Origin: Zestosphaera tikiterensis
Lineage (GTDB): Archaea > Thermoproteota > Thermoprotei_A > Sulfolobales > NBVN01
DNA: 32,000 bases
Assembly (NCBI GenBank): GCA_003056265.1
Contig: NBVN01000003.1
Coordinates: 1 to 32,000 of the forward strand
Direction of reading: 5' to 3'
Part shown: positions 196 to 15,604 of the stretch, piece by piece
How the letters are laid out: the number at the start of each line of letters is the position of its first letter
How positions within the stretch are numbered: the first letter of the stretch is position 1
Program-made: the position numbers and the translations under genes
Notes under the pieces: generated by a model
Databases searched by the model: none
Told to the model about the DNA's origin: nothing
What the model saw: the letters and a program-made list of their open reading frames with translations, nothing else

Positions 196-273
196 GGGCC
201 CGTGGCCTAGCCAGGATAAGGCGCCGGCCTTCGGAGCCGGAGGTCCCGGGTTCAAATCCCGGCGGGCCCGCCA
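196..273 (+). tRNA. tRNA-Arg, anticodon TCG, CCA encoded
   Basis: Cloverleaf folded by eye. Acceptor GGGCCCG/CGGGCCC, D stem GCCT/AGGC, anticodon stem CCGGC/GCCGG with loop CTTCGGA (anticodon TCG), T arm CCGGG-TTCAAAT-CCCGG, discriminator G, CCA at 271-273. No intron. Confidence 0.93.
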
Positions 274-326: not shown

Positions 327-1159
327 ATCTACACGACTTATATTTCTGTGGGCTTTTCTCGTTTCCACTAGATAGTATGGCCAGAAAGCAAGCCACTTAT
401 TGAGGATAACTCCCTATCCTACATGTACATAGTCACTATATTTCTTAATCTCATCTACTGGCGGTAGAGGGTTGTAAAGCGCGTTTTGCCTCAATAGCTT
501 CTGCCCCCTCTTTGTATTTCGGAGCTTGAGTCTAGGCCTTCATCAACTATAACTATTTTTGCGTCAGGCCTGGCTACTCTAAGCATTTCCCTAATGGCGA
601 GTTCCTGCTCTTCGAAGGTGTTTATACTGCCCACATGGAAGACTCCGTCGAAGCAGTTATCTTTCAGGGGTAGGTGGGAGGCGTTACCCTAATTAACACA
701 ACGTTCCAATGCTTTTTAGCAGTCCTTCTGGCATATCTCATCATGCTAATCGATATGTCAACTCCTATCACTAGGCCGTTCTTCCCAACCATCTTCCTCA
801 GTAAGGGAGGATTCTTTCCGGTACCCGTGGCCGCATCGAGAACCTTATCCCCTTTTTCAACTTTAGTAGCTTAGCTCATTTCCTTCGAGCCCTCATCTTC
901 AGCCCAAGCGTAAAGATTGGAATTATCCTATGGAAAAGCCTATAGTACTGTTCAGCGTTCTCATCATACCACTTAATCCACTGCTTATCCCTACCTGAGA
1001 CTAGAGAGTCTGGAAGCGTATCTATAATGCCATATTGCCCACGCTGTAGACACGCCCGCATCTAGTACATTGCAGCTTGCCCTTACCCAGGAAGACTAAG
1101 GGTGCTCTACAGAGAGGGCACCTTAGAAACTCCAGCACTACATCGTCATACCGCTGCAT
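327..1159 (-). pseudogene. Zn-ribbon (Trm112-like CPxC...CxxC) plus class I SAM-dependent methyltransferase, broken by several frameshifts and stops
   Basis: Hand translation of the minus strand gives five pieces in different frames. (a) MQRYDDVVLEFLRCPLCRAPLVFLGKGKLQCTRCGRVY from ATG 1159. (b) frame change to QYGIIDTLPDSL...WYDENAEQYY (ORF 876-1061). (c) frame change near 875 to EKGDKVLDAATGTGKNPPLLRKMVGKNGLVIGVDIS (SAM motif I). (d) frame change near 690 to GNASHLPLKDNCFDGVFHVGSINTFEEQELAIREMLRVARPDAKIVIVDEG. (e) stop, then further C-terminal pieces down to about 327. Confidence 0.7.
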
Positions 1160-1173
1160 GGAATATCACCCCT

Positions 1174-1620
1174 CTACGGGATTACTTTAAGCCATGGAAC
1201 TTGTTTGAAGTCCTCGTCGAATGATGCCAGTTTTTCTATACCTCTGTGTTTGCAGGTTAATACTATTTGGGCATCGTTTGGCGCTAGCCTGTAAGCCTTG
1301 ATAGTCTCGACAAGCTCGTCTGGGTTCTGGTAATCCCTTAGTACAGTTACTTTGAAGTCCTTAATGAAGCCGTTCACCCTCTCTATGGCTTCTTCGGGGA
1401 ATCCGTGTTTGGCTATATGCTTCCGGAATGGGTATTTTCCCTCAACACTGTGTTTTACCCGGGCAATCTTTGCGCCAGTAGTATAGAGCAACTCATTATA
1501 TACTATTATGGGGACGGCCATACCTTCTATAATTGCTTCCCTGACAACCTTTTCTGAGACGCTAGTTAGCTCTGTCTCGAAGAGAAAGTGATAGATTACG
1601 TTTGTGCCGAGGCATATCAT
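1174..1620 (-). CDS. vapC: PIN-domain toxin (VapC-like); first catalytic Asp replaced by Gly
   Basis: 148 aa, paralog of 10852-11304 (both end FDEDFK(Q/R)VPWLKVI). N-terminus MICLGTNVIYHF aligns with FLDTNIFYHI in the paralog; the codon is GGC where GAC is expected. ATGA start/stop overlap with the upstream antitoxin. Confidence 0.85.
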   Translation of the reverse strand: MICLGTNVIYHFLFETELTSVSEKVVREAIIEGMAVPIIVYNELLYTTGAKIARVKHSVEGKYPFRKHIAKHGFPEEAIERVNGFIKDFKVTVLRDYQNPDELVETIKAYRLAPNDAQIVLTCKHRGIEKLASFDEDFKQVPWLKVIP

Positions 1621-1814
1621 TGGACCTGAGCCTCCTCCTCAAGCTCCCGGAACTCCTCAACAGAGGATTTCCCGAGAACACCCCTATACTTCTTGATTAA
1701 CTCGTCCATACCCTCCTCCACAATAACCTTATACTCCTTACCCTCCTCAAGGTCTACATTACCCAAAGGCTTAAGCACGCCATTCTCGTACCTGACACGT
1801 ATAACCTTGGACAC
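1617..1814 (-). CDS. vapB: Small antitoxin, DUF104/AF2212-like family (named from memory)
   Basis: 65 aa, MSKVIRVRYENGVLKPLGNVDLEEGKEYKV. This is the typical archaeal N-terminus of antitoxins paired with PIN toxins. 4-nt overlap with the PIN gene. Confidence 0.85.
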   Translation of the reverse strand: MSKVIRVRYENGVLKPLGNVDLEEGKEYKVIVEEGMDELIKKYRGVLGKSSVEEFRELEEEAQVQ

Positions 1815-1975
1815 TTCCCAGCCCCACCTATAAATAATGTTCCTCAGAGTAATTATTCTTTCCTTACAAGGTGTTTCTAGATTATCCTCCCCGACATCCA
1901 GTACAGATAATCATCGTTGAAGCATATTCCCAGTCTATGGTTCCTACTGGAAACTCCATTTTTACATCCTTGACA

Positions 1976-2019
1976 TTTGGAGTCGGATGTCCTGGATTCA
2001 AATCCCAGCAGGCCCACCT
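1976..2019 (+). repeat. Decayed copy of tRNA-Arg 3' half (att-type scar)
   Basis: TTTGGAGTCGGATGTCCTGGATTCAAATCCCAGCAGGCCCACCT against tRNA 230-273. 35/44 identical by hand alignment. 7 of 9 differences are C->T or G->A. Confidence 0.7.
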
Positions 2020-2089
2020 AACTGAAGCAGTTAAATATTTGGTTTGTAGGTAATTATAGTGTTTAATGGTTCTCACCTTGGGTGTGGAG

Positions 2090-2330
2090 GGAAGGTGGGT
2101 GTGAAACCTCAAGGCTTAGGATGTGTGGCTTTCCCTAAAGCCCGAGCGTCCCCCACCGAGGGATCACCTCCTTAATCACCACGTGATGGGAGACGCGGGT
2201 TAGGGCTTTAGGTGAGGTTGTCATGAACGGGGGTGAGGGCGATAACAAGCCACCGATGAACTCAAGAGGATGGCCGAACCTAATGAACCCCAAAGCCTAC
2301 ATAGGACTACAAACACCTATGTAGGCTGAA
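2090..2330. ncRNA. GC-rich structured intergenic patch (candidate ncRNA or element relic), strand unknown
   Basis: Hand GC counts: 35/60 (2101-2160) and 33/60 (2161-2220) against 18/60 in flanking 2341-2400. Perfect 11-bp hairpin GCCTACATAGG(N10)CCTATGTAGGC at 2295-2326 and a 6-bp hairpin GGCTTT/AAAGCC at 2128-2143. No convincing ORF in any frame. Confidence 0.3.
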
Positions 2331-2438
2331 CCCCGCACAAAACGACTTACTATTTACTTGTTAATGCTTTACAGTACTCCTAGGAATTATAAAAGGAGAT
2401 GCTATACTAATATATAGGCTAATATATAGGTGTGGTGA

Positions 2439-2624
2439 TGCATTGTAATCAGTGTTGAGGAACTTAGAAAGATTGTAAGGGAGGAAGTTAGGAGAGCTCT
2501 TTTAGAAGCCCTGGTCGAGTTGTTGCCGGTTGTTAATGAAGAGGAGCAAAGAGAGATAGAAATGATTGCTGGTAGGCCAAGTGATTATTCTGAGGAGGAG
2601 TTCATGGATTGGGGTAGCGGGTAA
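2439..2624 (+). pseudogene. relB: aRelB-like antitoxin; open frame lacks an in-frame start
   Basis: Frame reads ...SVEELRKIVREEVRRALLEALVELLPVVNEEEQREIEMIAGRPSDYSEEEFMDWGSG*. The only nearby ATG (2438) is one nucleotide out of frame and stops after 6 codons. Below the 60-aa ORF cutoff. Confidence 0.5.
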
Positions 2625-2889
2625 GAATACATCGTAAGGCTCATCGCTTCTTAGAAAGCCTTCATGGAAATAAGAAGAGAATTATTGAGGAGAAGCTAAG
2701 GGAGCTTGTGGAAGCACTTAAGCATGGCGTCTTGCCTTATCGTAGGCTTGATATCTGCAGACTTAAAGGTGAATGGAAAGGCTTTCTACGTCTTCGAGTT
2801 AGCGATATAAGGATTATATTTAAAATAGATTTTAATGCTAAACAATACACATTTACCACATCCATTATAGGAGGAGCGCTTACAAATAA
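2618..2889 (+). pseudogene. relE: aRelE-like toxin; no start codon and a C-terminal frameshift
   Basis: Frame opens after TAG 2615-2617: RVRIHRKAHRFLESLHGNKKRIIEEKLRELVEALKHGVLPYRRLDICRLKGEWKGFLRLRVSDIRIIFKIDFNAK. The RelE-type ending TIHIYHIHYRRSAYK* lies in the next frame (stop 2887-2889). The in-frame reading runs on to 2911 as unrelated sequence. Confidence 0.65.
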
Positions 2890-2932
2890 CTCAGTTCAAA
2901 ATAGCAATTAAACAACACAATGCATAAGTTAA

Positions 2933-3109
2933 TTAAGTTAATATTGAAACAATAACATCTTTAGACACGCTATCCCAACTATCTAGAAAATCTCTATAGA
3001 AATCCCCGTAAACTCTCTTTAAAACACTAATAACATCTTCATCATATATAAGCATAGCTAAAACCATACATAGAACAATATGCAGTAAGACCAATAAAAC
3101 TCCTAACAC
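2933..3109 (-). CDS. Possible 58-aa small membrane protein (GTG start)
   Basis: VLGVLLVLLHIVLCMVLAMLIYDEDVISVLKRVYGDFYRDFLDSWDSVSKDVIVSILT*. One hydrophobic helix followed by an acidic tail. Just under the ORF-track cutoff, with no homology evidence. Confidence 0.25.
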   Translation of the reverse strand: MLGVLLVLLHIVLCMVLAMLIYDEDVISVLKRVYGDFYRDFLDSWDSVSKDVIVSILT

Positions 3110-3135
3110 ACTTAAACCATTGAGAGGAAATTCGT

Positions 3136-3223
3136 GACGGAGTGGCCGAGTGGTCCAAGGCGGTGGGCTCGAGACCCACTGGCGGTTATACCGCCGCGCT
3201 GGTTCAAATCCCGCCCCCCGGCA
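3136..3223 (+). pseudogene. tRNA-Ser(CGA)-like relic lacking a pairing 5' acceptor strand
   Basis: The D arm, anticodon arm GTGGG-CTCGAGA-CCCAC (CGA), long variable arm GGCGG-TTATA-CCGCC and 3' end ...CCCCCCGGCA are class II tRNA-like. The 5' seven nucleotides GACGGAG cannot pair with the 3' acceptor, and the T stem has a U-C mismatch (GCTGG/CCCGC). Confidence 0.6.
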
Positions 3224-3264
3224 TCATTCCTCTGTAATTTCCAACGCTTCCCCGGGTAGCTGTT

Positions 3265-3287
3265 GTAGTAATACGTGTAGTAATACG
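3265..3287 (+). repeat. Tandem direct repeat GTAGTAATACG x2 (12-nt period), partial third copy following
   Basis: GTAGTAATACG at 3265-3275 and 3277-3287, followed by GGTAGTGG. Lies about 200 nt upstream of the giant gene. Confidence 0.6.
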
Positions 3288-3416
3288 GGTAGTGGTTCCC
3301 TTGATTTCTAATTTCCTGTATTAGAGACGTATTATAGTCGGAGGTTCAGCTTTTTGAGGCGGGGGTGAGGTTGGAGCTTATCCTTATTCATCAGCTATAG
3401 GTATTTTCATTGGTTG

Positions 3417-3450
3417 GGTTTGACTAATTTAGTCAAACCAAATTTATATA
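3417..3450 (+). promoter_or_regulatory. Perfect 10-bp inverted repeat abutting a TATA-like box upstream of the 1593-aa gene
   Basis: GGTTTGACTA-ATT-TAGTCAAACC (3417-3439) is immediately followed by AAATTTATATAAGG (TATA-like 3443-3450), about 40 nt before ATG 3488. GAGGGTGGG lies just upstream of the start. Confidence 0.5.
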
Positions 3451-3487
3451 AGGGTGTCTACCTAGTTAGACGTGAGGGTGGGTCCTC

Positions 3488-6400
3488 ATGGTAAGGCTTA
3501 TTGCCCGGTCTCTCTCCATTATTATGGTTGTACTACTAGTACTACCCGAAGCAAATATCATTTTTGCTGAGAACACTCTATTAGGGCCGGCCTTCAATAG
3601 CGTTCAGAAAATCCCCGTGGTAAAACCCTCTAGGGATTACCTACCGGCAAATTACAGTCACGCCTTGAACCTCATATTTAATTTTAAAACCGATCAGGGG
3701 TTAAAGAGGGAAACAGGTATTACGACTACATTGATTAGTGACAATACTGTTAGAATACATGCCTACAACTACTACACTAACTACTTGGCAATAGCCGACT
3801 TAGACCTCGTAACCCTGGAGAAGAAAGTAAAATACGTCTTCTCCCAGTACTATAATGAAACACCACATATGTATGGACCAATTATCCGGATCAACGGCAC
3901 AGCCTACAACTTCATAGAACAAATGACTAATTACGGTGTCCCAGCCGGGATCCTGGGGTCAACAGATGTCGGCGCCAACACTATTGTCGTGACCCGCGTC
4001 ATGGGTTTTGACCTTCCACCGATTGAGTTAAAAATCGGTAGAGATGATACTGCTCGCCGAGACAAAGGCTATATAGTGATCGCCAGCCTCAATAAAAACA
4101 GCGCGGACACATATATTCTCGATCTCGGCGCGGTAGTTGATAGAGCATTAGGTGGACCAGGCATAATAAATAGTATTCCATTCGATGTGAGGGCATTGAA
4201 TAGTGCGAGCATCCGCTTCAATGGATCTACTATGAGCCTTGCACTCACGAGCCTTGGATGGCCCGGCGCCCCCGTGTATCAAGGCTGGATAGACTACGTC
4301 GATGGATTAGCGAGGATAGGCGAGCGTATAAATAATACTCATGTAAAGCTCTTCGCGGGGACAATAATAGCGCAGATCGATCTAGGGGATATGAAGGTTA
4401 TTAATGCATCCTTCGTGTACTCGAAGGAATATAACTCCTTCTCCATAGGTAAGCCCCTCAGTGACGGTGGATTCCTAGTACTACTCGTCTCAGTTAATTC
4501 AGTAGTATTCGTTAAGGTAGGCAAGGAACTACGCATAGAATGGGTAACTAGGATAGACCTACCTGCGATAAACCCTGATAATCCTGGGTGGTTCATCAAC
4601 CACTTTAAAATAGCTGAGGCCGGGAATGGGTACGTGGCTTTACTACCGTTTAACCTCGTGCAAAAAGGCTGGCCGAGGGAGAAACCCGTGGTAGTCTACC
4701 TGGATAAGAGCGGTCGCCTCAAGTGGAGTGCGCAGCTGCAGCCAGTGACATGGGTGCATACTGATATAGCTGAGTTATCCGCAGATAACGATACCATCTA
4801 CGTTGTATGGTCTAGTAACTATGACAATCCCCCTGGGAAACTATCATGGATAACGATGTTTGATGAGAGTGGGGAAGTGCTCGGGTCATTTAGGAACGCT
4901 GTAGGCATAGAGTATAACGCTGGCTTATTCACGGAGGTGCATGGGAGGCTCGGGAGAGATAGGACGATAATATGTAGGCCTACAGGCTATCACATATTTC
5001 ATAGAGGGGGCTTTGAGGGATGGATTGACGCCATGTACCTGCTCAACGACTATGACACTATGGAGCTAGGGGAGAACAGTCCCTTCAGGGATTTCAGGAG
5101 TAATGATGCTGACCTTGAGAAAGGCGAGGGGTGGATTGTTTCAAGTAATCCGACATGGCTGAATGTCTCCTACGGCTACACCGGGGTAGGCATAGCATAC
5201 TATAAGCACCCTATCCTCGTTAAAAGCGGGGAATCTATAACCATCAATAATACATATGTTGACACCCCACAGATAGTAACTGTGCTTAGGGATGTAGAGA
5301 GCACAGTAGAATTCACACCATCCTTCGTCTACCCAGTAGCCATTATGCCTGATGAAATAGACTTTGGACAGGTTCACATAGGGGAGGAGAAAGCTGTTGA
5401 TGTGGAAGTTGTATGGCTATCAGATATGTCTGGCACAGCAAGGGGCTACATCTACCACATTCCTAAAGCCCCATTCAAGCTCGGCGACTTATTCAAAGTG
5501 GAGGACGCCCATGTCGGTAATCATGTGCGTGTGAGAATGTACTTTAAGCCTGATAAAGAGGGGATAGCTACAGATATATTTGGCCTAGGCGCCATGATAT
5601 ATCCGGGAGTAGGCTACCCGGATCCATCTAGATTAGATTATCCTAGGCAAACAATCCCCGTGAGGGGAATCGGTGTTTCACGGGATAAGCCCATTGTTAT
5701 CAATATATCTAACTGCCCAGTTAGTCTAGGGCTTTCGGCATCCTACATCTCTATGCCTCCCTTCATACTGCCCGGTTCATCCTATAGGGAGTCAATCTAC
5801 ATAACCAACATAGGTAATGCTGAGGCAGTGTTCATTCACGGGATCCTAGTGCTACCTGGGAGCACCGTTATCTCCGTTAAGGGAGCTGATGAGGTTATAG
5901 GCCTCGGCAACGAGAGCCTGGATCCATTCTTCGCAATAGCTACAAAACTCAAGCCCCTGGAGACTAGGAGGATAGATATCTACATGAGGATAACGGCGGA
6001 GCTAGCGGATCGCAACAGCCCCTACAGGAAGCTGGGCCTAGAGCGGGCACCACATGGAGCTGTGCCCATGGAGATAGCGGCTCTACCACCTGCTCTATGG
6101 GAGGAGGCTTGGAGCTACTATAAGAAGAGCGATAAACCCCATCTCGTCGTGGACGCTGCGCTCAGAATGTACAATGACTACGTGGCCGGCATAGTGATGA
6201 AGCTGGGGGAGATGCCGGAGGATGAGCTGAATGATGCGCTAGTAAACTTGTGGATGAGTAATCAATACCTAGCCGACTACCTTGACATCGTATCCTTCAG
6301 AATGGCCATGGGCGACTGGATGTTCAATGAGACGGCTGCTTCCATAATTATTGGGGCTAATGGAGAGGTGTTGAATGCCAGCGGTATAAAGGTCAATAAT

Positions 6401-8269
6401 ACGACGAGCATGCCTAGGAGCAGTGTGCTGAGGCTTGAATCCATACTCCCAGGTATGGTAGGGGTTCAAGCTGAGAGCGATGAGCCCGGGCTCATATGGT
6501 ATCTCAGAGAGCTCTTTAAGCCCAAGGAGTTCTTGGAGACCGCTGGCCAGGGCCTTATAGGTCTGGGCGAGGGAGCTATCCAGGCCTTAACTTTCGACTT
6601 GGTGAAAATCGATGCGAAGAACGAGTACCAGGCCGTGGGGAAGACCATAGGCTATATAGCTACTAACGTGGAAATGCTTGTGGCGAATGCGGCCAGCATA
6701 AGCAAGTCCTTACCCGGGCTTTTACCCGGTCTCAAGAGTGCAGTAACTAACTTGGCGACTGCTGGTGTGAACACTGTAAAGGTTGTTGGCTCGGGCTTGG
6801 TAACGGGTTTTAAGTCCTGGCGTTTATCGAAAATGTTAGGTGGTGTAGGCCCCGCCTTGTTGATGAAGCTCTTCAAAGTCGAGTCCACAATTCCTGTCAA
6901 TATCCCGATCCTGAAGAAAACCATAGAGATACCCTGGGAGCTAAGTTTCCTCGAGAACTATAAGACGCTGCTAGGCTTCGAATACCTAATCCCGACTGAG
7001 GGGAAGACAGTCTATGGTAACATCATCAAGCTTGCCGAGAACAAGAATTTCGGGGGATGGTATATAGGTATAGGCTACACTCTCAACAAGGTCATAGAAG
7101 TAGATGGTAAGTTGGTCTATCCTGGGTGGTGGCACTACTACCTTAAATCCGGCAAGCTAGTCGTATACAACCCCGAGATAAAGGGATATACGGAGGAGCT
7201 CCTACCTATTCTCCAGCCCCTCCTAGGTGCAATGAAGGATTTAGCGATAACAGCCTACCGGAACCCTGCAGTCACCTACTTGACTACCGGCCTCGCACAC
7301 AATGCGTACTCACTTCTCTGGGGGGACATGTACAACCTTCTCCAGCTATCCTATGGGGACACTCTTTCCCGGGTAAGCTTCAGCGCAGACCCCAACGAGC
7401 TCCATATCAGGCCATCGCCCTATGTGGGTAGCCTTGATTCAGACATTTATATACAGACTCGCTTTGAGAACCTAGCTAATGCGACTGCGCCAGCCTACAA
7501 TATTACTGTCAGGGTTTACCTGGAGGGTCCGGTTAACGCTTCCACGATTACTGTGTGGGATGCCAGTCATCCTGAAGCGTTTGACGGCTATAGAGTCAGT
7601 GTTGATGACGGTAGGGTAGTTGTAGAGGTGAGGTTCACTAATATAACGCTACCCCCGAATAAGAATCCACCCGAGGGTGAGGGGTGGGTGACTCTGAAGC
7701 TCAGATTCCTGGGTGATGCTAGGCCTGGAGACAGCATTAGGGCCTATGCCGATGTCTACTTCGACTATAACCCGCCAGTCAGAACCAACACGGAGTCTAC
7801 AACATATGACCCAGATCCCCCTGAGGTAAGCATTAATGCTTCTGTTGAGCCGGGTAAGATCAGGGTGAGTCTCACATGTCTCGATAGTGTTTCAGGATGC
7901 AACTACACAGTATTGATGTTGCGGAAGGGTGTGAACCCGCTGGCTAACGAGACCCTGCTGGAGCCGGGGCCTGGAGGTGTCTACGAGGTGAGCCTAGAGC
8001 CGGGAACCTACACTCTTGTGGCCATAGGCATTGATAATGCTGGTAACAGAGTCTGGAGCAACACAACTATAAATGTGCCGGGAATCACTACGAATACACC
8101 CTGGGGCAACACCACGACTATAAACGTGCCGGGAACTACTAGCGCCACGAATGAGAGTGAAAGCCGTGGTGGAGGTAGTGGTATCCCCATCTGGATCTAC
8201 CTGGCAATCCCCCTGGTAGCGGTTGCCGCTGTGATCCTTGTAGTTAAGTTGCGACGTCCTAAGAGCTAG
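3488..8269 (+). CDS. Giant secreted, C-terminally membrane-anchored, heavily sequon-decorated cell-surface protein (S-layer/adhesin-like)
   Basis: Uninterrupted 1593-codon ORF. N-terminal signal-like MVRLIARSLSIIMVVLLVLPEANIIFA and C-terminal TM IPIWIYLAIPLVAVAAVILVV followed by KLRRPKS. At least 23 N-x-S/T sequons by eye. Segments IDFGQVHIGEEKAVDVEV and SYRESIYITNIGNAEAV look Ig/PapD-like. C-terminal LPPNKNPPEGEGWVTLKLRF...ADVYFDYNPPVRTN and DNAGN look like adhesin-type motifs. Confidence 0.9.
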   Translation: MVRLIARSLSIIMVVLLVLPEANIIFAENTLLGPAFNSVQKIPVVKPSRDYLPANYSHALNLIFNFKTDQGLKRETGITTTLISDNTVRIHAYNYYTNYLAIADLDLVTLEKKVKYVFSQYYNETPHMYGPIIRINGTAYNFIEQMTNYGVPAGILGSTDVGANTIVVTRVMGFDLPPIELKIGRDDTARRDKGYIVIASLNKNSADTYILDLGAVVDRALGGPGIINSIPFDVRALNSASIRFNGSTMSLALTSLGWPGAPVYQGWIDYVDGLARIGERINNTHVKLFAGTIIAQIDLGDMKVINASFVYSKEYNSFSIGKPLSDGGFLVLLVSVNSVVFVKVGKELRIEWVTRIDLPAINPDNPGWFINHFKIAEAGNGYVALLPFNLVQKGWPREKPVVVYLDKSGRLKWSAQLQPVTWVHTDIAELSADNDTIYVVWSSNYDNPPGKLSWITMFDESGEVLGSFRNAVGIEYNAGLFTEVHGRLGRDRTIICRPTGYHIFHRGGFEGWIDAMYLLNDYDTMELGENSPFRDFRSNDADLEKGEGWIVSSNPTWLNVSYGYTGVGIAYYKHPILVKSGESITINNTYVDTPQIVTVLRDVESTVEFTPSFVYPVAIMPDEIDFGQVHIGEEKAVDVEVVWLSDMSGTARGYIYHIPKAPFKLGDLFKVEDAHVGNHVRVRMYFKPDKEGIATDIFGLGAMIYPGVGYPDPSRLDYPRQTIPVRGIGVSRDKPIVINISNCPVSLGLSASYISMPPFILPGSSYRESIYITNIGNAEAVFIHGILVLPGSTVISVKGADEVIGLGNESLDPFFAIATKLKPLETRRIDIYMRITAELADRNSPYRKLGLERAPHGAVPMEIAALPPALWEEAWSYYKKSDKPHLVVDAALRMYNDYVAGIVMKLGEMPEDELNDALVNLWMSNQYLADYLDIVSFRMAMGDWMFNETAASIIIGANGEVLNASGIKVNNTTSMPRSSVLRLESILPGMVGVQAESDEPGLIWYLRELFKPKEFLETAGQGLIGLGEGAIQALTFDLVKIDAKNEYQAVGKTIGYIATNVEMLVANAASISKSLPGLLPGLKSAVTNLATAGVNTVKVVGSGLVTGFKSWRLSKMLGGVGPALLMKLFKVESTIPVNIPILKKTIEIPWELSFLENYKTLLGFEYLIPTEGKTVYGNIIKLAENKNFGGWYIGIGYTLNKVIEVDGKLVYPGWWHYYLKSGKLVVYNPEIKGYTEELLPILQPLLGAMKDLAITAYRNPAVTYLTTGLAHNAYSLLWGDMYNLLQLSYGDTLSRVSFSADPNELHIRPSPYVGSLDSDIYIQTRFENLANATAPAYNITVRVYLEGPVNASTITVWDASHPEAFDGYRVSVDDGRVVVEVRFTNITLPPNKNPPEGEGWVTLKLRFLGDARPGDSIRAYADVYFDYNPPVRTNTESTTYDPDPPEVSINASVEPGKIRVSLTCLDSVSGCNYTVLMLRKGVNPLANETLLEPGPGGVYEVSLEPGTYTLVAIGIDNAGNRVWSNTTINVPGITTNTPWGNTTTINVPGTTSATNESESRGGGSGIPIWIYLAIPLVAVAAVILVVKLRRPKS
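8060..8140 (+). repeat. In-gene tandem repeat encoding NTTINVPGIT / NTTTINVPGTT stalk
   Basis: AACACAACTATAAATGTGCCGGGAATCACT (8060-8089) and AACACCACGACTATAAACGTGCCGGGAACTACT (8108-8140). Thr/Asn-rich linker just before the C-terminal anchor. Confidence 0.7.
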
Positions 8270-8440
8270 TCAAAATCTCCACCATTTTTCCTCGGTAACG
8301 ATTAGCCATATGTTTTTCAAGTATCACCACTTTCATAATCCTGCTCCTGCCCCTTTTAGTTTGCCTAGTGCCTTATCAGCTATGGCTTGAATCTCCGGGC
8401 ATAGGATTCTCACAACCACTATGTAGTTTTATTTTAATCT

Positions 8441-8730
8441 CTACAGCACGTGAAAGGGGTTTTCGCGAGAAATAAGTATCCACTTATCCAATTCGAGCCA
8501 TGAGTCAACATGACGACTACTAACACCTAATCCAGTAAGCTCCTCTATACGCACTTCCTAGCTATATTCCCTTCCCGCTGTCTTATCAGCTCAATCATAT
8601 CAATATCCTGAGATATCTGTTCTGGCTGAATCCACGGTATTTAGCTCCTTAACGATTTCCTTACTTACATTATCTGCTGGACCGCCTATTACATGTATCC
8701 AATATAGCGCCTCGTAAAGCAGTTCCGTCT
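8441..8730 (-). pseudogene. Remnant of a winged-helix/HTH-type regulator gene (multiple frame breaks)
   Basis: Minus-strand pieces in three frames: ELLYEALYWIHVIGGPADNVSKEIVKELNTVDSARTDIS / QDIDMIELIRQREGNIA / EVRIEELTGLGVSSRHVDSWLELDKWILISRENPFHVL*. The HTH-like pattern is only suggestive. Confidence 0.3.
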
Positions 8731-8810
8731 TTATAGATGTTGATAAGTGAAAAATATCAATTAGATATATTTAGATGTCTTTATTTATGGATTTGTTGAG
8801 TTTCGACATC

Positions 8811-8960
8811 GATGATGATGGTGAGGTGGGTGAGCGTTAAATGAATTCAAGTTCGATGTAGGGAGTTATGAAGGAATGATTAGCTCCCGCAGTCGGGCTT
8901 GAAGGATCCCATAGGCGATGAAAACCTACGTAAGCATTGATCTACTTACGTATGTGCGAA
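8811..8960. ncRNA. GC-richer hairpin-bearing intergenic patch (candidate ncRNA or relic)
   Basis: Hairpin GGGAG(T)...(G)CTCCC at 8861-8888 with ATGAAGGAATGAT in its loop. 8-bp hairpin TACGTAAG(N10)CTTACGTA at 8927-8952, followed by GAACCC as in patch 2090-2330. Confidence 0.25.
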
Positions 8961-9131
8961 CCCTACCTAGCAACTTATTAAGTTTGACCAGTACGTTTAA
9001 CACAGTAACCGTTACCTAGTCACTCTACCAAATTCTCCTGATATTGCATTATAAATCTTGGCTTACATAAGTTGCTTGTAAATGTAGGTATACAATATTT
9101 CATGCTAAACTTTATCATCCTGTTGATGTCT

Positions 9132-9665
9132 TTAGAGCTCACCTATCTCTCTGAGAAATTCTTCAAGTACTTCCTTAGATATTATCCAGAAACCGCTTTC
9201 TATGAGCTGGTCTATTACCTGCTTCGCCTTAGGGATCAATCCCTTATACTTGGCTAATGTTATTATACCTAGCGTACTCATCACTTATAACCCCAGCTTC
9301 TTAGCTAGGTTTCTCGTGTCCCTGTCGTCTACGAGTAGCAGATCCGCGTTACGCTTTAGTGCTAGAACTATTGCTTCTGCTTCGTCAGTATTTACAAACT
9401 CTTCAAGAAGAGCTACCAGCCTCTTATTACCAGCTTTACCTACATCTATGAAATCTGCTCTCACTATCTTCTCACTACCGGGCTTATTCTCAACCGTTAT
9501 CTCCTTCCAGACCGCTTCCGGGATAAGTATTTTCCTGAAGAGTTTCTCTAAGATATCTAAACGGCATATCTTGACGAATGCAATAATAACGCTTGAATTA
9601 GAGACAACGAGAAGCTCTTCCTTTCCCCTACCACTTTCTTGTCTTTTTCGCAAGCTTCTTGGCAA
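9132..9665 (-). pseudogene. DUF3368-like PIN-type toxin interrupted by an in-frame TAA
   Basis: ORF 9285-9665 ends ...RNLAKKLGL then TAA (9285-9287). The same frame continues VMSTLGIITLAKYKGLIPKAKQVIDQLIESGFWIISKEVLEEFLREIGEL* (to stop 9132-9134), which is the expected C-terminal half. The N-terminal motif reads VVSNSS where this family (from memory) has an Asp. Confidence 0.7.
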
Positions 9666-9909
9666 GCTCCAGGTCTTCCCTCAACTCTTCTTCATCGTAG
9701 TGTAGTGGTATACCTTCTCTAGCTAGCAGTTCTAGGAAGTCCCACTTCGAAAGACTAGCTATTCTCCTAGCCTGACCCAGACTAGCTATACCTTTCTCGT
9801 AAAGCCTCAACGCTAGCTCTACTCTGAATCTCCCCTCAAGCTCGTCAGGAGGAACCCTAAGACCCTCAGGAACCTCAATAACAACACGCTTAGCCCTAGT
9901 TTTAAACAC
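9628..9909 (-). CDS. UPF0175-family antitoxin-like protein
   Basis: 93 aa, ELALRLYEKGIASLGQARRIASLSKWDFLELLAREGIPLHYDEEELREDLE. This is the typical UPF0175 pattern (from memory). Lies upstream of and overlapping the DUF3368-like gene. Confidence 0.8.
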   Translation of the reverse strand: MFKTRAKRVVIEVPEGLRVPPDELEGRFRVELALRLYEKGIASLGQARRIASLSKWDFLELLAREGIPLHYDEEELREDLELAKKLAKKTRKW

Positions 9910-10103
9910 TCATAACCCCCTCTACAGAGATACTTATACTTGTGGAAGATATTAATCTTAAACTACTTCAAGATAAACTAAGCTTTAACAACATTAACAT
10001 CATTAAACCTCCAAGCCAAATATACTGGAAGAAAGTATGTATGAAAAACTATACCTATATGTCCTAGTAATTAAGGACACTTCCTTATAAGGATTGATCT
10101 CTC

Positions 10104-10143
10104 GAGCCGTAGGTCCCGGGTTCAAATCCTGGCGGGCCCGCCA
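10104..10143 (+). repeat. Near-perfect copy of tRNA-Arg 3' end (att-type scar)
   Basis: GAGCCGTAGGTCCCGGGTTCAAATCCTGGCGGGCCCGCCA against tRNA 234-273. 38/40 identical, and the next two bases (CA) also match. Confidence 0.85.
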
Positions 10144-10511
10144 CAGAATTGAGGCCACTTATTTTCATATGATCTCTGCTTCATTTTATTTGGTTGTATT
10201 CATGAGCTAGCATTAACCTTACCGCATTTAATCAAGTTGAAGTTGTTAGATGTTGAGTATTGATAATGTAACCAACGCCGTTAGGGTTTTCGTCGTAAAT
10301 CAGACGCAACCATCTATTCTTAAGCCTCCTCACAAACTTCCTTGCTGGTATGAACCTATCTGGTACATTCTCTATGTACTTTACTTAGCATGTGCATCGC
10401 CAAACTTTTTAACATTAACTTCTCTCCCCTCTGCGTACCAAGTGGTAATAGCGTATGCCTAGGATTACTGCAACTACCAGCGCGGGAGGACTCCTGAAAG
10501 CCATAGCTATG

Positions 10512-10739
10512 TCAAAGAACATGGGTATTAAACCTAGGTAACCTGAATGTCTGATCCACGAGTATATTCCATAACAACTTATTAGCTATATAGTTAATCC
10601 TCTCAATGCTCTCATGAGCTTTAAGATGAGCTTTATAACTAAGGTAGTGTATATAAGACCCTAAGATAAACATAGACCATCCAAGAACGCGTAAACCAGC
10701 ACTAGTGATATTAAGCTTTAAAAGAAAACCCATAACCAC
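10512..10739 (-). pseudogene. Fragment of a small hydrophobic membrane protein gene (flanking pieces in other frames)
   Basis: The 75-aa ORF is hydrophobic. Immediately upstream, MLKKNILIALKFTLIFYSLAWLWVFF* lies in another frame, and downstream PMFFDIAMAFRSPPALVVAVILGIRYYHLVRRGE lies in a third. Consistent with a frameshifted gene. Confidence 0.3.
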
Positions 10740-10851
10740 GCTAAAGAATAGAATATGAGGGTAAACTTAAGAGCGATGAGAATGTTTTTCTTCAACATCA
10801 CTTTCACTAATGCATGTAACCTAGCTTTTAGCACTTGGGTTTACAACCTCT

Positions 10852-11304
10852 TCATGAGATAACCTTTAGCCACGGCACCCTCTTGAAGTCCTCGTCGAAG
10901 GTTAGGATCACGTCTATACCATAGTGTTTACAGGTTAGTGCTATTATGGCATCGCTTGGCAGAAGCTTGTAGCTTAGCATGGTTTCGTAAAGTTCCTGCT
11001 CGGCATAAATGCTTGGTACTAACCTTATGTTTAATCTCCTGATTAATTCTCTCACTGCATTAACGACTTCCCCTGGATATCCATGTTTCTTCACCCATCT
11101 CTTCACTGAGTGAATCCCTTTCACACCATGTTTATGTTCTAGGTAATGTACTGTTGATGTATAGATTATCTCGTTATGGACAACCATATCTATAACGTAG
11201 TCTCCAGGATTTTCTTCTAGTAGAGTTAGAACCTGGTCTGTCTTAGGCGTATTATGGAGGATATGGTAAAATATATTAGTGTCTAAGAAAATCAAGAAAG
11301 CCAC
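10852..11304 (-). CDS. vapC: PIN-domain toxin (VapC-like), apparently intact
   Basis: 150 aa, GTG start. FLDTNIFYHIL...NEIIYTS...PSDAIIALTCKH...FDEDFKRVPWLKVIS retains the acidic PIN residues. Overlaps the upstream antitoxin by 13 nt. Confidence 0.88.
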   Translation of the reverse strand: MAFLIFLDTNIFYHILHNTPKTDQVLTLLEENPGDYVIDMVVHNEIIYTSTVHYLEHKHGVKGIHSVKRWVKKHGYPGEVVNAVRELIRRLNIRLVPSIYAEQELYETMLSYKLLPSDAIIALTCKHYGIDVILTFDEDFKRVPWLKVIS

Positions 11305-11489
11305 GTCTCCTCCAAGTACTTCTCTAACTCCTTCTCGTCAGACCTGCCTAAGATGCCGATAATGTCTTTCAACCTACTCCTAAGATTTCTTTCGATCCTC
11401 ACCTGAACTTCCTCACCTTCCTTAAGCTCTAAAGACTCTAAAGGCTTCAACACACCATTCTCGTACTTAACTCTAACAACCTTGGACAT
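11292..11489 (-). CDS. vapB: DUF104/AF2212-like antitoxin
   Basis: 65 aa, MSKVVRVKYENGVLKPLESLELKEGEEVQV. Paralog of 1617-1814 and 14501-14704. Confidence 0.85.
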   Translation of the reverse strand: MSKVVRVKYENGVLKPLESLELKEGEEVQVRIERNLRSRLKDIIGILGRSDEKELEKYLEETWLS

Positions 11490-11630
11490 CCAGCTACACC
11501 CAATTATATTTACGGCTTTAAAGGGTTAAAAACGTGTTGCGATAGGATAAAAACTTACCATAACAGAATCACCAATCATTTATCTGACAATGTTACAAAT
11601 CCTACATGACTTCATGCAATATTTTAACAT

Positions 11631-11686
11631 GGACGCCAGCCTTCGGAGCCGAAGATCCTAGACTCAAATACTGGCGATCCACCACA
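11631..11686 (+). repeat. Strongly decayed copy of tRNA-Arg from the anticodon stem to the 3' end
   Basis: GGACGCCAGCCTTCGGAGCCGAAGATCCTAGACTCAAATACTGGCGATCCACCA against tRNA 219-273. About 40/55 identical with one gap. The anticodon loop CTTCGGA is preserved, and the differences are mostly G->A and C->T. Confidence 0.7.
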
Positions 11687-11886: not shown

Positions 11887-11980
11887 TTATGTAATTCCTC
11901 GATATTCTCAGATATTCTTACTTACTTTCCCTACTCTCAAAGCTTAAAGTTTATATTTTAGGTAAGTGAGTATATATTCT

Positions 11981-12160
11981 TGGAGTTGATGAGGGGGTTT
12001 ATCCACCTAATAGAATAGGTGGATCCCTGAGGAAAAATATCGTAAAGATGGGAGAGAGGGGTAAGCGTATGCGGGGGTGCTTGGGTCGCCCCTAAGAGCC
12101 TCCGCAGTGAAGGATGAAGCCCGACAGAGCGGAGGAACAAAAAATGAAGGGATGAAGAAA
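11981..12160. ncRNA. GC-rich structured intergenic patch (candidate ncRNA or relic)
   Basis: Hand GC count 37/60 for 12061-12120. Perfect 8-bp hairpin ATCCACCT(N8)AGGTGGAT at 12001-12024, bracketed by TGATGA (11987-11992) and CTGA (12027-12030). Second hairpin CTCCGC(N23)GCGGAG at 12100-12134 with GTGAAGGATGAAG in its loop. ATGAAGGGATGAAG at 12144-12157. Confidence 0.3.
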
Positions 12161-12197
12161 GTAGTTAAGAGCTATTGAGAGCGATTAGGAGTATCGT

Positions 12198-12479
12198 TCA
12201 GACCTGAACCCTACCTATACCTTCTATTTCTATGTTTACGTGTTTCTTAAGGTACGCTTTCACATATCCACCAACACCTGCGAGATATGCTGGCTCAGCA
12301 TTATCGAAGCTAATCCCAGCGTACTCTGCTACGCTCGTATGAAACAAGCTTATCGAAGCACCACTGTCCACTAAGACATAGACAAGGATCTTGCCATGAG
12401 AACCTATAAGCCGTACGGGTATAATCGGGTAATACCTCCTACGGCGCTCAACATATTTAAACTCCACACTACCAGCCAT
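12198..12479 (-). CDS. Single-domain retropepsin-like (clan AA) aspartic protease
   Basis: 93 aa with the active-site motif in LVYVLVDSGASISLF (D-S-G-A). The size fits a homodimeric retropepsin fold. Confidence 0.8.
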   Translation of the reverse strand: MAGSVEFKYVERRRRYYPIIPVRLIGSHGKILVYVLVDSGASISLFHTSVAEYAGISFDNAEPAYLAGVGGYVKAYLKKHVNIEIEGIGRVQV

Positions 12480-12532
12480 AGTTGGTGAAACCTCTACACT
12501 GTTTCTCTAGAGAATATCTTAGCCTCCCCCAG

Positions 12533-12745
12533 CTAGACTACTAGAAGGTCGTGGCTTGGAACCTTTATGATGCCATAGCTTCCTCTCTCATAACCCTTCT
12601 CCTCCATTATCCCCTCCAGTTCTTCCAGAGTACGAGCATATGCTATAACTCTCCCATCTACAATAGCGGCCCAATGACCCTCTGGAACCTTATCCAGCTC
12701 ACCCTTCTTAATAACCTCGATAGGCTTACTCTTCAACCATACCAC
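12533..12745 (-). CDS. Small protein, DUF5678-like (from memory), upstream partner of the retropepsin-like gene
   Basis: 70 aa, GHWAAIVDGRVIAYARTLEELEGIMEEKGYERGSYGIIKVP. Same strand, 53 nt upstream of the protease gene. Confidence 0.6.
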   Translation of the reverse strand: MVWLKSKPIEVIKKGELDKVPEGHWAAIVDGRVIAYARTLEELEGIMEEKGYERGSYGIIKVPSHDLLVV

Positions 12746-13775: not shown

Positions 13776-13860
13776 GCGGGGGGCTTCACTACCTTAGACT
13801 CCCGCATCGTTCTACTAAACCCCCTTAAGCAAATGCGGAGGAATCCATGAGGAATGAAGA
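13776..13860. ncRNA. Short GC-rich hairpin patch between two TA operons
   Basis: GCGGGGGG at 13776-13783. Bulged stem CTCCCGCAT / ATGCGGAG at 13799-13840. ATGAGGAATGAAG at 13847-13859. Confidence 0.2.
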
Positions 13861-14025
13861 CAAACACAGGATCAGACCTCTAGATTCCTTAATACTTCTT
13901 GAGTTCTCTCTTTGTATTGATGCTTAATAGTAACTTTTGATGTAGGTTTTAAGCCTACTTTCGATAAGTTCACTAGTTCACTACACGGTATTATTAATGT
14001 TATACAACGAAGATTAAGTATTAGC

Positions 14026-14501
14026 TTAAACCAACTTTTGTAGCTTATCTATAAGTGTCTTGTAGTCTTTATCGTCAAGTAAGTAGTAAGACTCAACTCC
14101 AGCTTTTAGAGCGTTATATTTCATGGTCTTGTCATTAGTAATCAGGATGCCGTTAACGTGCTTGGCTACGGCTATGTAATATGCGTCGACTGCTCTGCAC
14201 CCAGTTAGGAGAGCTGTTTCCGCTGCCTTATTATGAACAAGCTCTTCCCCCATAACGTTTACGTGTTCAAGAACCAATCTACTACATTAACGAATTGTTC
14301 CGGCTTGATACTCCTCACTAGCACACCACGAAGCTCTATCTCGAAGAGGAAAGGTTCGTAGATAAGTAAGCCTAGATTAGACAGCCTATCAAGAATAGCT
14401 CTCGCCCTCTCATGTCTATCCCGTCTTTCAGGATAGAGGAGGTAATAGTCTGCAAAGACACTAGCATCAACTATGGCAATATCGATAGTCTGCAAAGGCA
14501 C
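14026..14501 (-). pseudogene. vapC: PIN-domain toxin split by a single frameshift
   Basis: ORF 14259-14501 (MPLQTIDIAIVDASVFADYYL...FVNVVDWFLNT*) and ORF 14026-14277 (LVLEHVNVMGEELVHNKAAETALLTGCRAVDAYYIAVAKHVNGILITNDKTM...) together give one full-length PIN domain. The frames switch around 14259-14277. Confidence 0.75.
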
Positions 14502-14704
14502 TATCTCCTCTCTTCCATATATTCACCAACAACGTCCCAATTCGCTTTAAACCTATATCCGCACGCCTTCTCACTAAACCCTCTAAAAACTTTTCTAGCA
14601 ATTAAGACCTTTAACTCCTCTCCCTCGCTAAGCTCAACATTGTCAAGAGGTCGTAACACACCCTTCTCGTACCTAACTCTAACAGCTTTAGACATTCTCC
14701 ACAC
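14501..14704 (-). CDS. vapB: DUF104/AF2212-like antitoxin
   Basis: MSKAVRVRYEKGVLRPLDNVELSEGEELKV. The likely true start is the ATG at 14695 (MSKAV...). Abuts the split PIN gene. Confidence 0.8.
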   Translation of the reverse strand: MWRMSKAVRVRYEKGVLRPLDNVELSEGEELKVLIARKVFRGFSEKACGYRFKANWDVVGEYMEERR

Positions 14705-15067
14705 CGATATAGAAGATGTGTTTCTGAGCTAATTAGTCTTTTCTATAGCTTGCCTTTCACATTTAGCGTTCGTAACCACACGTGATAATAGTTGTATTTT
14801 CTCAACTCCTAGATATTAAAGCGTTTATTTCCCTCTAGAGGTTTAAACCTTTAGTACCTCATCACTTATGGAAGTGCTTTATAATTAGATGTTTATCCTC
14901 ACGTCTATAAAACTGGTGTAGAACCTTTTAACAACGAGGTTTGCTAAAAAGAAAAATATCGCTGGAGTCGACGAGAGTTAAAAAGAGAAGGTAGTAGGTT
15001 AACTGGCGGAGATGATTGAAACTCATGGGAATAAAGCTCTCTTGTTTTGGATGGTTTATATAAAGAG

Positions 15068-15604
15068 CTATTGGTGTTGTTGAATCTCTAATAGCATTCT
15101 TTTAGCTTCTTCTCGATATTGAGGGTTGGGGCTGTAAGTAAAGGCTATCAACGCCATCTTACACATTCTCTTTCCCCACCCAGAGACTAGGCGTTCACCT
15201 TCTGGACGTTCAGCAAGTTCTTTTAATTCTTTTGGAGATACGTAAATATTCTCTCCTTTCGTTGGCCTTTGATTTATAACGCCCACTGGAATTATGAAAG
15301 CAAAATCTACGATTCTTTTTTCTTTATCTATATAGAGTACGGGATGCATGGTAGGTATAGGTGGCACCTGAATTAATAAACCTGTTTCCTCCTCTACTTC
15401 TCTAGCCAATTCTTCACCAATAATTTTTTCGTTCCTTGCTCTCCAAATATTTTCCTCTTCCATCGTACCTCCTGGAAGTTCCCAATCCCCTTCATATAAG
15501 CAAGGAGCTTCAGACCCCTCTCTTTTTCGTCTTCGCAAAAGGAGTTTCCCACCTCCATCAAAGATTCCAGCAAAAAGACCTACCCTTACCTCCATAACCA
15601 TCAC
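15068..15604 (-). CDS. Nudix hydrolase
   Basis: 178 aa. Nudix-box elements are GGTMEE...REVEEETGL, with extra residues between the Gly and the REx2EE part. Confidence 0.85.
   Translation of the reverse strand: MMVMEVRVGLFAGIFDGGGKLLLRRRKREGSEAPCLYEGDWELPGGTMEEENIWRARNEKIIGEELAREVEEETGLLIQVPPIPTMHPVLYIDKEKRIVDFAFIIPVGVINQRPTKGENIYVSPKELKELAERPEGERLVSGWGKRMCKMALIAFTYSPNPQYREEAKRMLLEIQQHQ

Follow-up and report, generated by a model that had tools for sequence, protein, structure and literature searches.

Tandem toxin-antitoxin units bounded by tRNA-Arg 3′ halves in Zestosphaera tikiterensis and its relatives: candidate mini integrative elements of Desulfurococcales

The window analyzed here, that is, the first 32 kb (32,000 nucleotides) of contig C19 in the 1.8-Mb, 19-contig assembly of the archaeon Zestosphaera tikiterensis (genome label G000), begins 195 nt upstream of an intact tRNA-Arg(TCG) gene. 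It raises the question why decayed copies of the 3′ half of that gene recur downstream of it, each next to a toxin-antitoxin (TA) operon. The answer put forward is that the array probably consists of tandem, nonautonomous mini integrative elements resembling cis-mobilizable elements (CIMEs), which would be moved in trans by an integrase of approximately 440 amino acids (aa). The units are discrete, have arms of fixed length with conserved motifs, are specific for tRNA-Arg, and are stacked, and their number differs between close strains.

With an nhmmer profile made from tRNA-Arg 3′ halves, three extra direct copies were detected on the plus strand of the window besides the tRNA gene itself. 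These relics, R1 to R3, were aligned with the tRNA over 51 nt spanning the anticodon stem to the CCA end and are taken as right-hand attachment (att) sites. Each has a minus-strand TA operon to its left, with the antitoxin start codon facing the relic. The features of the array, including the right arms that separate antitoxin and relic, are the following:

196-273, plus strand: intact tRNA-Arg(TCG), called by ARAGORN (Rfam tRNA 67.5 bits; 3′-half profile E 5e-17); attL/attB end of the array
1174-1620, minus strand: PIN toxin of pair TA1 (Pfam PF01850, E 1.7e-13, 51.7 bits)
1617-1814, minus strand: AF2212-like antitoxin of TA1 (PF01954, COG2880, the former DUF104; E 1e-21, 77.5 bits)
1815-1968, plus strand: right arm of unit 1, type B; proximal TA promoter region, then GTTTCY repeats, GATTATC/GATAATC motifs, and an inverted repeat
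1969-2019, plus strand: relic R1 (attR of unit 1), a decayed tRNA-Arg 3′ half (nhmmer 1976-2017, E 3e-8; 37 of 51 positions identical to the tRNA)
9132-9665, minus strand: DUF3368 PIN-like toxin of TA2 (Pfam PF11848 on the C-terminal piece; two abutting in-frame open reading frames (ORFs))
9628-9909, minus strand: UPF0175 antitoxin of TA2 (Pfam PF03683, E 1.4e-23)
9910-10092, plus strand: right arm of the second interval, a third arm type, ending in CTTCCTTATAAGG just 5′ of the att core
10093-10143, plus strand: relic R2 (attR), the best preserved of the three (nhmmer 10100-10143, E 2e-11; 41 of 51 identical to the tRNA)
10852-11304, minus strand: PIN toxin of TA3 (Pfam PF01850, E 7e-17, 62.5 bits)
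11292-11489, minus strand: AF2212-like antitoxin of TA3 (Pfam PF01954, E 7e-23, 81.3 bits)
11490-11634, plus strand: right arm of unit 3, type A; TATA-like CTTTAAA approximately 30 nt from the ATG, imperfect inverted repeat at about -50/-25 from att
11635-11685, plus strand: relic R3 (attR of unit 3), the most decayed of the three (nhmmer 11635-11676, E 5e-5; 36 of 51 identical to the tRNA)

In the best-preserved part of R2 (10104-10143), 38 of 40 positions are identical to the tRNA. The antitoxin gene lies directly upstream of the toxin gene on the same strand, overlapping it by 4 nt in TA1 (1617-1620) and by 13 nt in TA3 (11292-11304), and the PIN and AF2212-like domains of both pairs score above the Pfam thresholds. 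The view that two of the three pairs are paralogous DUF104-type/PIN pairs, expressed in an earlier, sequence-only reading of this DNA, could be confirmed, though the paralogues are distant, with 38% identity between the PIN proteins and approximately 50% between the antitoxins. The PIN protein of TA1 is 86% identical to one from another metagenome-assembled genome (MAG), and that of TA3 is 73% identical to PIN proteins of Pyrodictiaceae and Acidilobaceae MAGs. In the alignment, TA1 PIN carries Gly at the first catalytic Asp (MICLGTN; D5G), where relatives of 84-86% identity have MICLDTN; in TA3 PIN the catalytic residues D8, E45, D118, and D137/D139 (numbering of alignment A3) are kept. The DUF3368 toxin of TA2, the orthologues of which in G004 are 70% identical, is split by an in-frame TAA codon (9285-9287) into pieces of 126 and 50 aa, so that no intact frame is present. 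Two of the three predicted toxins of the window are damaged, namely, TA1 by D5G and TA2 by the nonsense codon.

The same reading had claimed that every relic sits beside a TA operon, at gaps of 161, 194, and 141 nt. These values are right for the relic boundaries used at that time; when the gaps are taken to profile position 1, which is the 5′ side of the anticodon stem, the antitoxin start codons lie 154, 183, and 145 nt from R1, R2, and R3, respectively. The adjacency stands for all three relics of the window but does not extend to the whole genome, since one relic at a second tRNA-Arg locus (L001 12676-12702) is not preceded by a TA operon. At that second locus, tRNA-Arg(CCG) on contig C8 (L001), five relics are found, four of them 141-147 nt from the start of a minus-strand TA pair or TA remnant. 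One of the C8 pairs has a MazE/AbrB antitoxin, yet it possesses the same type-A arm. The fifth relic, the exception just mentioned, is short and is preceded by a plus-strand gene for a secreted protein. Contig C5, which was assembled together with C8, carries a close variant of that locus, with approximately 94% identity in the shared flanks. There, the tRNA is followed by a single unit of approximately 1 kb (123 nt, PIN, AF2212, arm, relic) and then by the same flanking gene as in C8, where approximately 10.4 kb of further units lie between the tRNA and the unit shared with C5. It follows from this comparison that arrays differ by whole units, on the tRNA-proximal side.

The spacers between antitoxin and relic, for which an alignment had been proposed, proved to be homologous. 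The arms of unit 3 and of four C8 and C5 units have 71% column identity (alignment A1, type A), and the arm of unit 1 is 78% identical to a C8 arm (type B). A type-B profile built from the arm only matches the window at 1853-1967 with E 1.4e-18, and an arm-plus-att profile matches it at 1847-2017 with E 1.5e-31; the right arm at 9910-10092 matches neither the type-A nor the type-B arm profile. Homology between units does not extend past the CCA of the relic. Where an AF2212/PIN pair has no relic, the arm motifs are missing too. From this observation, together with the occurrence of type A next to both AF2212 and MazE/AbrB, it is concluded that the conserved part tracks the att site and not the TA type.

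Among 104 relics with upstream sequence, 51 arms are of type B, seven of type A, and 46 of other types. The type-B arm, counted back from the relic, has TGTTTCCAGATTATC near -97, the position of a GTTTCC-type motif, GATAATCA near -65, GTTTCC twice, near -47 and near -35, the inverted CTGGAAAC (GGAAAC) near -27, and TTATAAG near -9. The type-A arm contains an analogous inverted repeat, TGTTGCA..TGCAACA, at a similar offset. In 26 of the 104 relics the TATA-like TTATAAG occurs 3-10 nt before the att core, and this, along with the strong conservation of the upstream sequence, could be taken to mean that relic and conserved leader form an expressed tRNA half or small RNA, driven from the TTATAAG promoter and acting in the manner of a split tRNA or as an antisense regulator of the toxin. 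Split tRNAs exist in archaea related to this one. Such an RNA function is nevertheless very improbable. The relics decay freely: 36-41 of 51 positions survive, and base pairing in the acceptor and T stems is disrupted in R1 and R3. A 5′ half to match them was not found, nor would the cell need a second 3′ half while its tRNA-Arg genes are intact. ARAGORN and Rfam call none of the window relics; at gathering thresholds, Rfam reports three tRNAs only over the window, and the relics, arms, and GC-rich patches are without a match to a curated family.

Outside the genome, the antitoxin, arm, and relic stretch was recovered at 72-78% nucleotide identity from other families in a search of 61 related genomes, and the antitoxin plus arm of unit 3 is 78% identical at the nucleotide level to G042:C33. 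Minimal units, delimited by a relic at one end and by a relic or the tRNA at the other, are present in G004, G057, G019, and G044; the last is a complete genome and has an array of three to four units. Both ends of minimal units are seen in C5, L013, L014, L022, L035, and others. The survey of other archaeal genomes that had been called for was carried out as a PIN-profile search of GTDB species representatives, and it resulted in 79 loci from Pyrodictiaceae, Acidilobaceae, Desulfurococcaceae, Ignisphaera, Staphylothermus, and others. Since these loci were chosen by PIN homology and some are duplicated, the fractions derived from them are descriptive. A correctly oriented tRNA-Arg half was present within 400 nt of the AF2212 start at 53 of 105 evaluable starts, and a wrongly oriented one at three; the gap from start to att has a median of 155 nt and an interquartile range (IQR) of 153-158 nt. 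An att copy follows the PIN stop in 47 of 89 cases (median 128 nt, IQR 120-147 nt), with a minority of distances of 380-630 nt where an extra gene is carried. The tRNA genes of the survey loci are tRNA-Arg in 30 of 31 cases (TCG 21, CCG 5, GCG 4).

The sequence-only reading would have been abandoned if TA operons were so dense that adjacency to such a site is expected by chance. This is not the situation encountered, since the 1.8 Mb contain only 14 PIN and 8 AF2212 matches, which are concentrated at C19:1-15 kb and C8:59-68 kb, immediately behind a tRNA-Arg gene in both cases. What speaks for coincidence is the local crowding: the first 14.7 kb of the contig carry six TA-like operons, every one of them on the minus strand. 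If 60 TA operons are allowed for genome-wide, a randomly placed, oriented site would have a chance of approximately 1e-3 of lying in a 61-nt window on the required side and strand; even inside the TA-rich 14.7-kb stretch with its six operons, the estimate is approximately 0.025 per relic and 1.5e-5 for all three. The homology of the spacers and the order-wide gap distribution, repeated in dozens of genomes, already refute chance adjacency, the probability of which is close to nil.

The canonical unit is approximately 1.0 kb long and consists of an att copy, a left arm of approximately 128 nt, PIN, AF2212, a right arm of approximately 155 nt, and the second att copy. The att site corresponds to the 3′-terminal ~50 nt of tRNA-Arg, beginning in the anticodon stem and ending with CCA, and both PIN and AF2212 are read towards the tRNA. 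Cassette sizes are approximately 1-2 kb; larger variants add one gene, for a methyltransferase or a small membrane protein, or another TA pair, which is UPF0175/DUF3368 or MazE/AbrB-PIN. The left arms of minimal units share motifs. The proposal of the earlier reading that TA, spacer, and att form one repeated architecture tied to integrative elements proved correct.

The arrays are not local duplications, because cassettes are divergent within an array and have close relatives elsewhere, at varied positions and different tRNA-Arg genes. In a comparison of 115 full-length PIN proteins, none of the 58 that come from multi-PIN loci had its closest relative in its own locus; the median best identity is 38% within a locus versus 87% between loci, the latter figure being somewhat inflated by duplicate loci. 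The closest relatives of the cassettes (70-90%) are located in other genomes, at different array positions and different tRNA-Arg genes. W1-type cassettes, for instance, occupy the first, the second, or the third position of an array and are found at TCG as well as GCG genes.

The mechanism by which mini integrative elements of this kind would be stacked can be outlined as follows. Each unit would have integrated as a circle at the intact tRNA, and each integration would have pushed the former 3′ half outward as a relic, so that the oldest unit would be the one furthest from the tRNA. Recombination would be catalyzed in trans by tyrosine integrases of approximately 440 aa, composed of a helix-turn-helix (HTH) and a Phage_integr_3 domain, that belong to larger elements using the same tRNA-Arg site. 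Transfer from cell to cell would be accomplished by accretion with such an integrase element and joint excision, i.e., cis-mobilization. The TA pair would make a unit hard to lose until its toxin decays, which would already apply to two of the three toxins of the window. The mini-element of approximately 1 kb may be derived from one founder deletion and have spread as a unit thereafter.

Candidate integrases were obtained from a PF16795 search over 151 genomes of the order. Proteins of approximately 435-445 aa, with an N-terminal HTH and a Phage_integr_3 catalytic domain, are encoded directly beside tRNA-Arg(CCG) in G042, G131, and G098. Complete elements at tRNA-Arg(CCG) are available in two cases (L133 in G131, 17 kb; L134 in G098, 9.5 kb); both have the same kind of right arm and no TA pair beside attR. 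GTTTCAG..CTGAAAC inverted repeats occur, within the stretches fetched from G131 and G098, next to att copies only. They are positioned approximately 46-48 nt before attR and, in the left arm, at the integrase start, and a further unit of the G098 array has them beside its att copies, too. Judged by sequence, the GTTTC..GAAAC repeat of these integrase elements is similar to the right-arm repeat of the TA units and lies at the same distance from the core. At the third locus (L132, G042:C33) the integrase beside tRNA-Arg(CCG) is followed 7 kb on by a W3-like PIN/AF2212 pair, a type-A arm, and attR. The left-arm repeat of this locus, TGTCCCA..TGGGACA, is without a partner in the arm on the TA side, and the PIN gene is truncated, for which reasons the locus looks like two elements fused by deletion.

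These loci bear on a different history, in which the relics mark what were once full-length integrase elements with a TA pair proximal to attR, the remainder having been deleted and the TA pair kept because its loss kills the cell. The arrangement in G042:C33, with an integrase at one end and the TA pair at the other, speaks for such a history; the decay in the window (methyltransferase pseudogene, D5G toxin, nonsense toxin) is in line with it, and tRNA genes of Sulfolobales are well known to harbor degraded integrated elements (PMC3119797). However, deletion is expected to leave ragged left ends, and the distance from PIN stop to att is 120-147 nt in most units, with motifs shared among the left arms; the two intact integrase elements have no TA pair at attR, and in G042 the mismatched arm repeats and the truncated PIN point to fusion. 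Survival by deletion is therefore considered unlikely. The two alternatives left by the sequence-only reading fare alike, neither of them fitting well: TA as the terminal cassette of one integrase-bearing family is disfavored by L133 and L134 and by the composite look of G042, and TA-plus-att as a random-deletion survivor by the tight size of both arms and the fixed position of their motifs across many genera.

Two side observations concern integrase-bearing or intermediate elements. In L134 (G098:C47), a 2.8-kb att-bounded unit at 13788-16660 has GTTTCA..TGAAAC in both arms and contains a PIN/AF2212 pair together with some 1.3 kb of additional DNA, so that it may represent a stage midway from full elements to minimal cassettes or the reverse. 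In Z. tikiterensis itself, a 32-kb element (C14:286166-318458) occupies tRNA-Thr(TGT); its integrase gene is intact (438-aa frame) and adjoins attL, and its attR is perfect over 44 nt. Its design is the same, with the different half-site GAGTTCCC and GAGTTCCC..GGGAACTC inverted repeats in both arms, and its right arm scores against the type-B profile with E 7e-5.

The cassettes could also have been shuffled independently of any integrase, by homologous recombination between the att repeats of approximately 50 nt and by uptake of foreign DNA, with the arms serving TA regulation as operator or leader. Direct-repeat recombination could produce the difference between C5 and C8, the genome is without a cognate integrase, and the arm motifs occupy the place upstream of the TA operon at which an operator would be expected. 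Yet one type-A arm accompanies AF2212 in some units and MazE/AbrB in another, the arm repeats are located 50-130 nt beyond the proximal TATA-like promoter, TA-less integrase elements have the same inverted repeat at the same offset, and relic-less AF2212/PIN pairs lack the motifs. On this evidence, integrase-independent shuffling is rather improbable.

Several points weigh against trans-mobilized mini-elements as well. No excised circle, empty site, or recombination junction is among the observations. PF16795 and PF00589 searches revealed no integrase at either tRNA-Arg locus of the genome; its sole PF16795 match is the tRNA-Thr-specific one on C14, and its sole other tyrosine recombinase is encoded by one PF00589 (Xer-like) gene. 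The left arms of minimal units are without the GTTTCC inverted repeat that is present there in integrase elements, and the attP of the units may for this reason be incomplete; alternatively, the arm motifs might function as TA operators or form structures in the 5′ untranslated region. Approximately half of the surveyed antitoxins are without a detectable relic, and the survey loci were picked via PIN homology, a few of them repeating loci that had been obtained by another route. A PIN-family search of IMG/VR viral contigs found no relatives. Finally, the 8-kb second interval (2020-10143), which contains the only tRNA-Ser(CGA) that ARAGORN called in the assembly, does not resemble a simple cassette.

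The remaining features of the first 15 kb comprise the cargo of unit 1, the interior of the second interval, and a further TA pair:

351-1159, minus strand: pseudogene fragments of a Trm112-fused S-adenosylmethionine (SAM) methyltransferase, cargo of the first unit (tblastn with the intact L013 gene: 74-81% identity, three frame-broken pieces)
2020-9131, no strand assigned: interior of the second interval, with a ~300-nt dispersed repeat (2040-2350), a RelE-like ORF, tRNA-Ser(CGA) at 3135-3225, and a DUF7619 protein at 3488-8269
14026-14704, minus strand: further pair of AF2212 and frameshifted PIN, without a detectable relic

Intact copies of the methyltransferase (Pfam Methyltransf_31 plus Trm112p, the latter a Trm112-like zinc ribbon) have 276 aa in G004 and several MAGs, in which the gene is carried with a TA pair in att-bounded units; the same methyltransferase-plus-TA unit between att copies is present in L042, L034, L037, and L044. 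The DUF7619 domain is C-terminal in a predicted secreted or anchored protein of 1593 aa (3488-8269), which has no DNA-level relatives in 36 family genomes and appears, for that reason, to be strain-specific cargo between R1 and TA2; when tRNA-Ser plus the start of this gene were used in a DNA search of the family, only the tRNA-Ser part matched. A short plus-strand ORF pair is located at 2450-2911; its second product (67 aa, KGEWKGFLRLRVSDIRIIFKID) is RelE/ParE-like by eye, without a Pfam match at E 0.01. The pair at 14026-14704 may be an older, fully decayed unit; upstream of it only faint arm-like strings are visible by eye, and the arm profile finds none. A sensitive relic search upstream of three further TA pairs (12745, 13692, 14704) found none. 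The minus strand at 12198-12745 encodes, in a TA-like arrangement, a retropepsin-like aspartyl protease (PF13650) and a DUF5678 protein; this pair separates the array from two further PIN pairs.

Two families of dispersed repeats of approximately 300 nt (window 2040-2350 and 11900-12200) have about six and 17 genome copies, respectively, at 74-89% identity; copies are situated just after R1 and R3, inside a tRNA-Val unit on C14, and beside a tRNA-Pro TA pair on C2. The C14 interval (C14:385577-386820) measures 1.1 kb from tRNA-Val(CAC) to a 39-nt perfect copy of its own 3′ part and holds only a DUF433 antitoxin-like gene, in the equivalent position when the dispersed repeat is discounted, and one copy (290 nt) of the repeat. 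The interval forms a mini-unit comparable to the tRNA-Arg ones, at a different tRNA. On C2 (160219-161219), the genes for an AF2212-like antitoxin and a PIN_2-like protein follow tRNA-Pro(CGG) at a distance of 230 nt and on the strand of the tRNA, an orientation different from that of the tRNA-Arg units, and the copy of the tRNA-Pro 3′ part is far off at C19:156134-156177. Further along the window, tRNA-His(GTG) (24512-24588) is overlapped on the minus strand by a 109-aa ORF (region 24512-24852; PF07935) that resembles the N-terminal part of SSV1 integrase D-335; this ORF is the Int(N) footprint of an SSV-type element once integrated there. A plus-strand ORF (“MTSCN...”), starting approximately 25 nt before type-A relics, was considered as a gene and rejected; it runs on into nonhomologous flanks and reflects a conserved DNA motif.

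Extended to the whole order, the reading of the arrays as mobilized mini-elements would amount to an integron-like system of Desulfurococcales, in which TA-only mini-elements of approximately 1 kb with lambda-style arms are serially captured at tRNA-Arg(TCG/CCG/GCG) by HTH-tyrosine integrases acting in trans. This extension is put forward tentatively, its chance of holding being somewhat less than even. If true, TA pairs would be mobile genetic elements in the strict sense and the arrays would record successive captures. The relic-arm signature could be used by annotation pipelines to delimit cassettes and to date array growth.

The type II TA pair PIN/COG2880 was predicted by Makarova, Wolf, and Koonin in 2009 (PMC2701414), and the pair described here agrees with that prediction in the small AbrB-related antitoxin gene upstream of and overlapping the PIN gene, in the occurrence in thermophiles, and in the patchy distribution. 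TA pairs have been called mobile from such distributions, a dedicated vehicle being rarely identified (PMC2701414). The 2009 work shows mobility statistically, without a vehicle, whereas the pair here resides inside an att-flanked unit of approximately 1 kb, with mainly TA cargo and conserved putative recombinase-binding arms, at one tRNA class across an archaeal order. This suggests that the tRNA-Arg cassettes are a concrete vehicle for TA gene movement between archaeal genomes.

Among the archaeal elements known to integrate into tRNA genes, the SSV type has a partitioned and the pNOB8 type an intact integrase, and pAH1 of Acidianus hospitalis integrates into tRNA-Arg(TCG) (PMC3119797; PMC7253208); tandem integration is known for nonsuicidal archaeal integrases (PMC7253208). 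The present units share with them the tRNA 3′ target, including tRNA-Arg, the direct repeats attL and attR, and successive integration and decay, which are recognized there too. They differ in encoding no integrase: tRNA 3′ direct repeats are present at both ends as in the pNOB8 type, and neither the window array nor the C8 array contains a tyrosine integrase gene of its own. The relics start no Int(C) frame, and split Int(N)/Int(C) frames are not found at the tRNA-Arg relics. An SSV-type split integrase at the relics was rejected on this ground, as no long antisense frame leaves them; read from the sequence, the antisense frame through a C8 relic stops after approximately 10 codons. Sulfolobales genomes contain decayed tRNA-integrated elements, and their vapBC pairs are concentrated in variable regions, diverse within a genome and shared between genomes (PMC3119797). 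The cited archaeal papers place vapBC pairs in variable regions and not in att-bounded cassettes. No description of att-flanked TA mini-cassettes in archaea was found in the literature searched, an absence that is not proof of novelty. Mobilization in trans would explain why vapBC-like genes of hyperthermophiles are diverse within a genome yet shared between genomes, and it would offer, in the form of arm-core-arm and tRNA-Arg, simple substrates for the study of a poorly characterized archaeal integrase family.

The TA cassettes of Vibrio chromosomal (super)integrons are approximately 1 kb in size, have their own promoter, and end in a recombination site each. They form long, one-directional arrays at one site, with the recombinase encoded outside the cassette, and the TA pairs are thought to stabilize the array. 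Cassette size, a promoter of their own, a terminal recombination site, and one-directional arrays at one chromosomal site are common to both systems, and a recombinase outside the cassette and stabilization of the array by the TA pairs would be so too. The archaeal units differ in the absence of an attC hairpin, of IntI, and of an attI/Pc platform beside the array. In them, a tRNA 3′ half serves as the repeat, flanked by arms in the manner of a lambda-type attP; no integrase gene lies beside the arrays, the genes upstream of tRNA-Arg are housekeeping genes (aspartyl-tRNA synthetase in C8), and the end at which new cassettes would enter is an essential tRNA gene.

The closest parallel is provided by CIMEs and their tandem accretion at tRNA genes, described for the islands related to ICESt1 and ICESt3 of Streptococcus thermophilus (Pavlovic 2004 and Bellanger 2011, as reviewed in PMC5704250). 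Like CIMEs, the units retain attL and attR, are devoid of integrase and transfer genes, and lie in tandem at the 3′ end of a tRNA gene, and their proposed movement would depend on an incoming integrase element that uses the same site. Derivation from such an element, and mobilization by it, would be in line with the similar arm repeat at the same offset in the integrase elements at tRNA-Arg(CCG) and with the G042 locus, which looks composite. The differences are that the units are archaeal and linked to another integrase family (HTH plus Phage_integr_3, ~440 aa), that they make up a uniform, order-wide family of approximately 1 kb with conserved arms where CIMEs are one-off decay products, that a TA pair is their only cargo, in arrays of up to four or five units, and that their mobilization is hypothetical. 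If they are indeed mobilized in trans, the tRNA-Arg units would be the archaeal counterpart of both the bacterial CIMEs and the TA cassettes of integrons.

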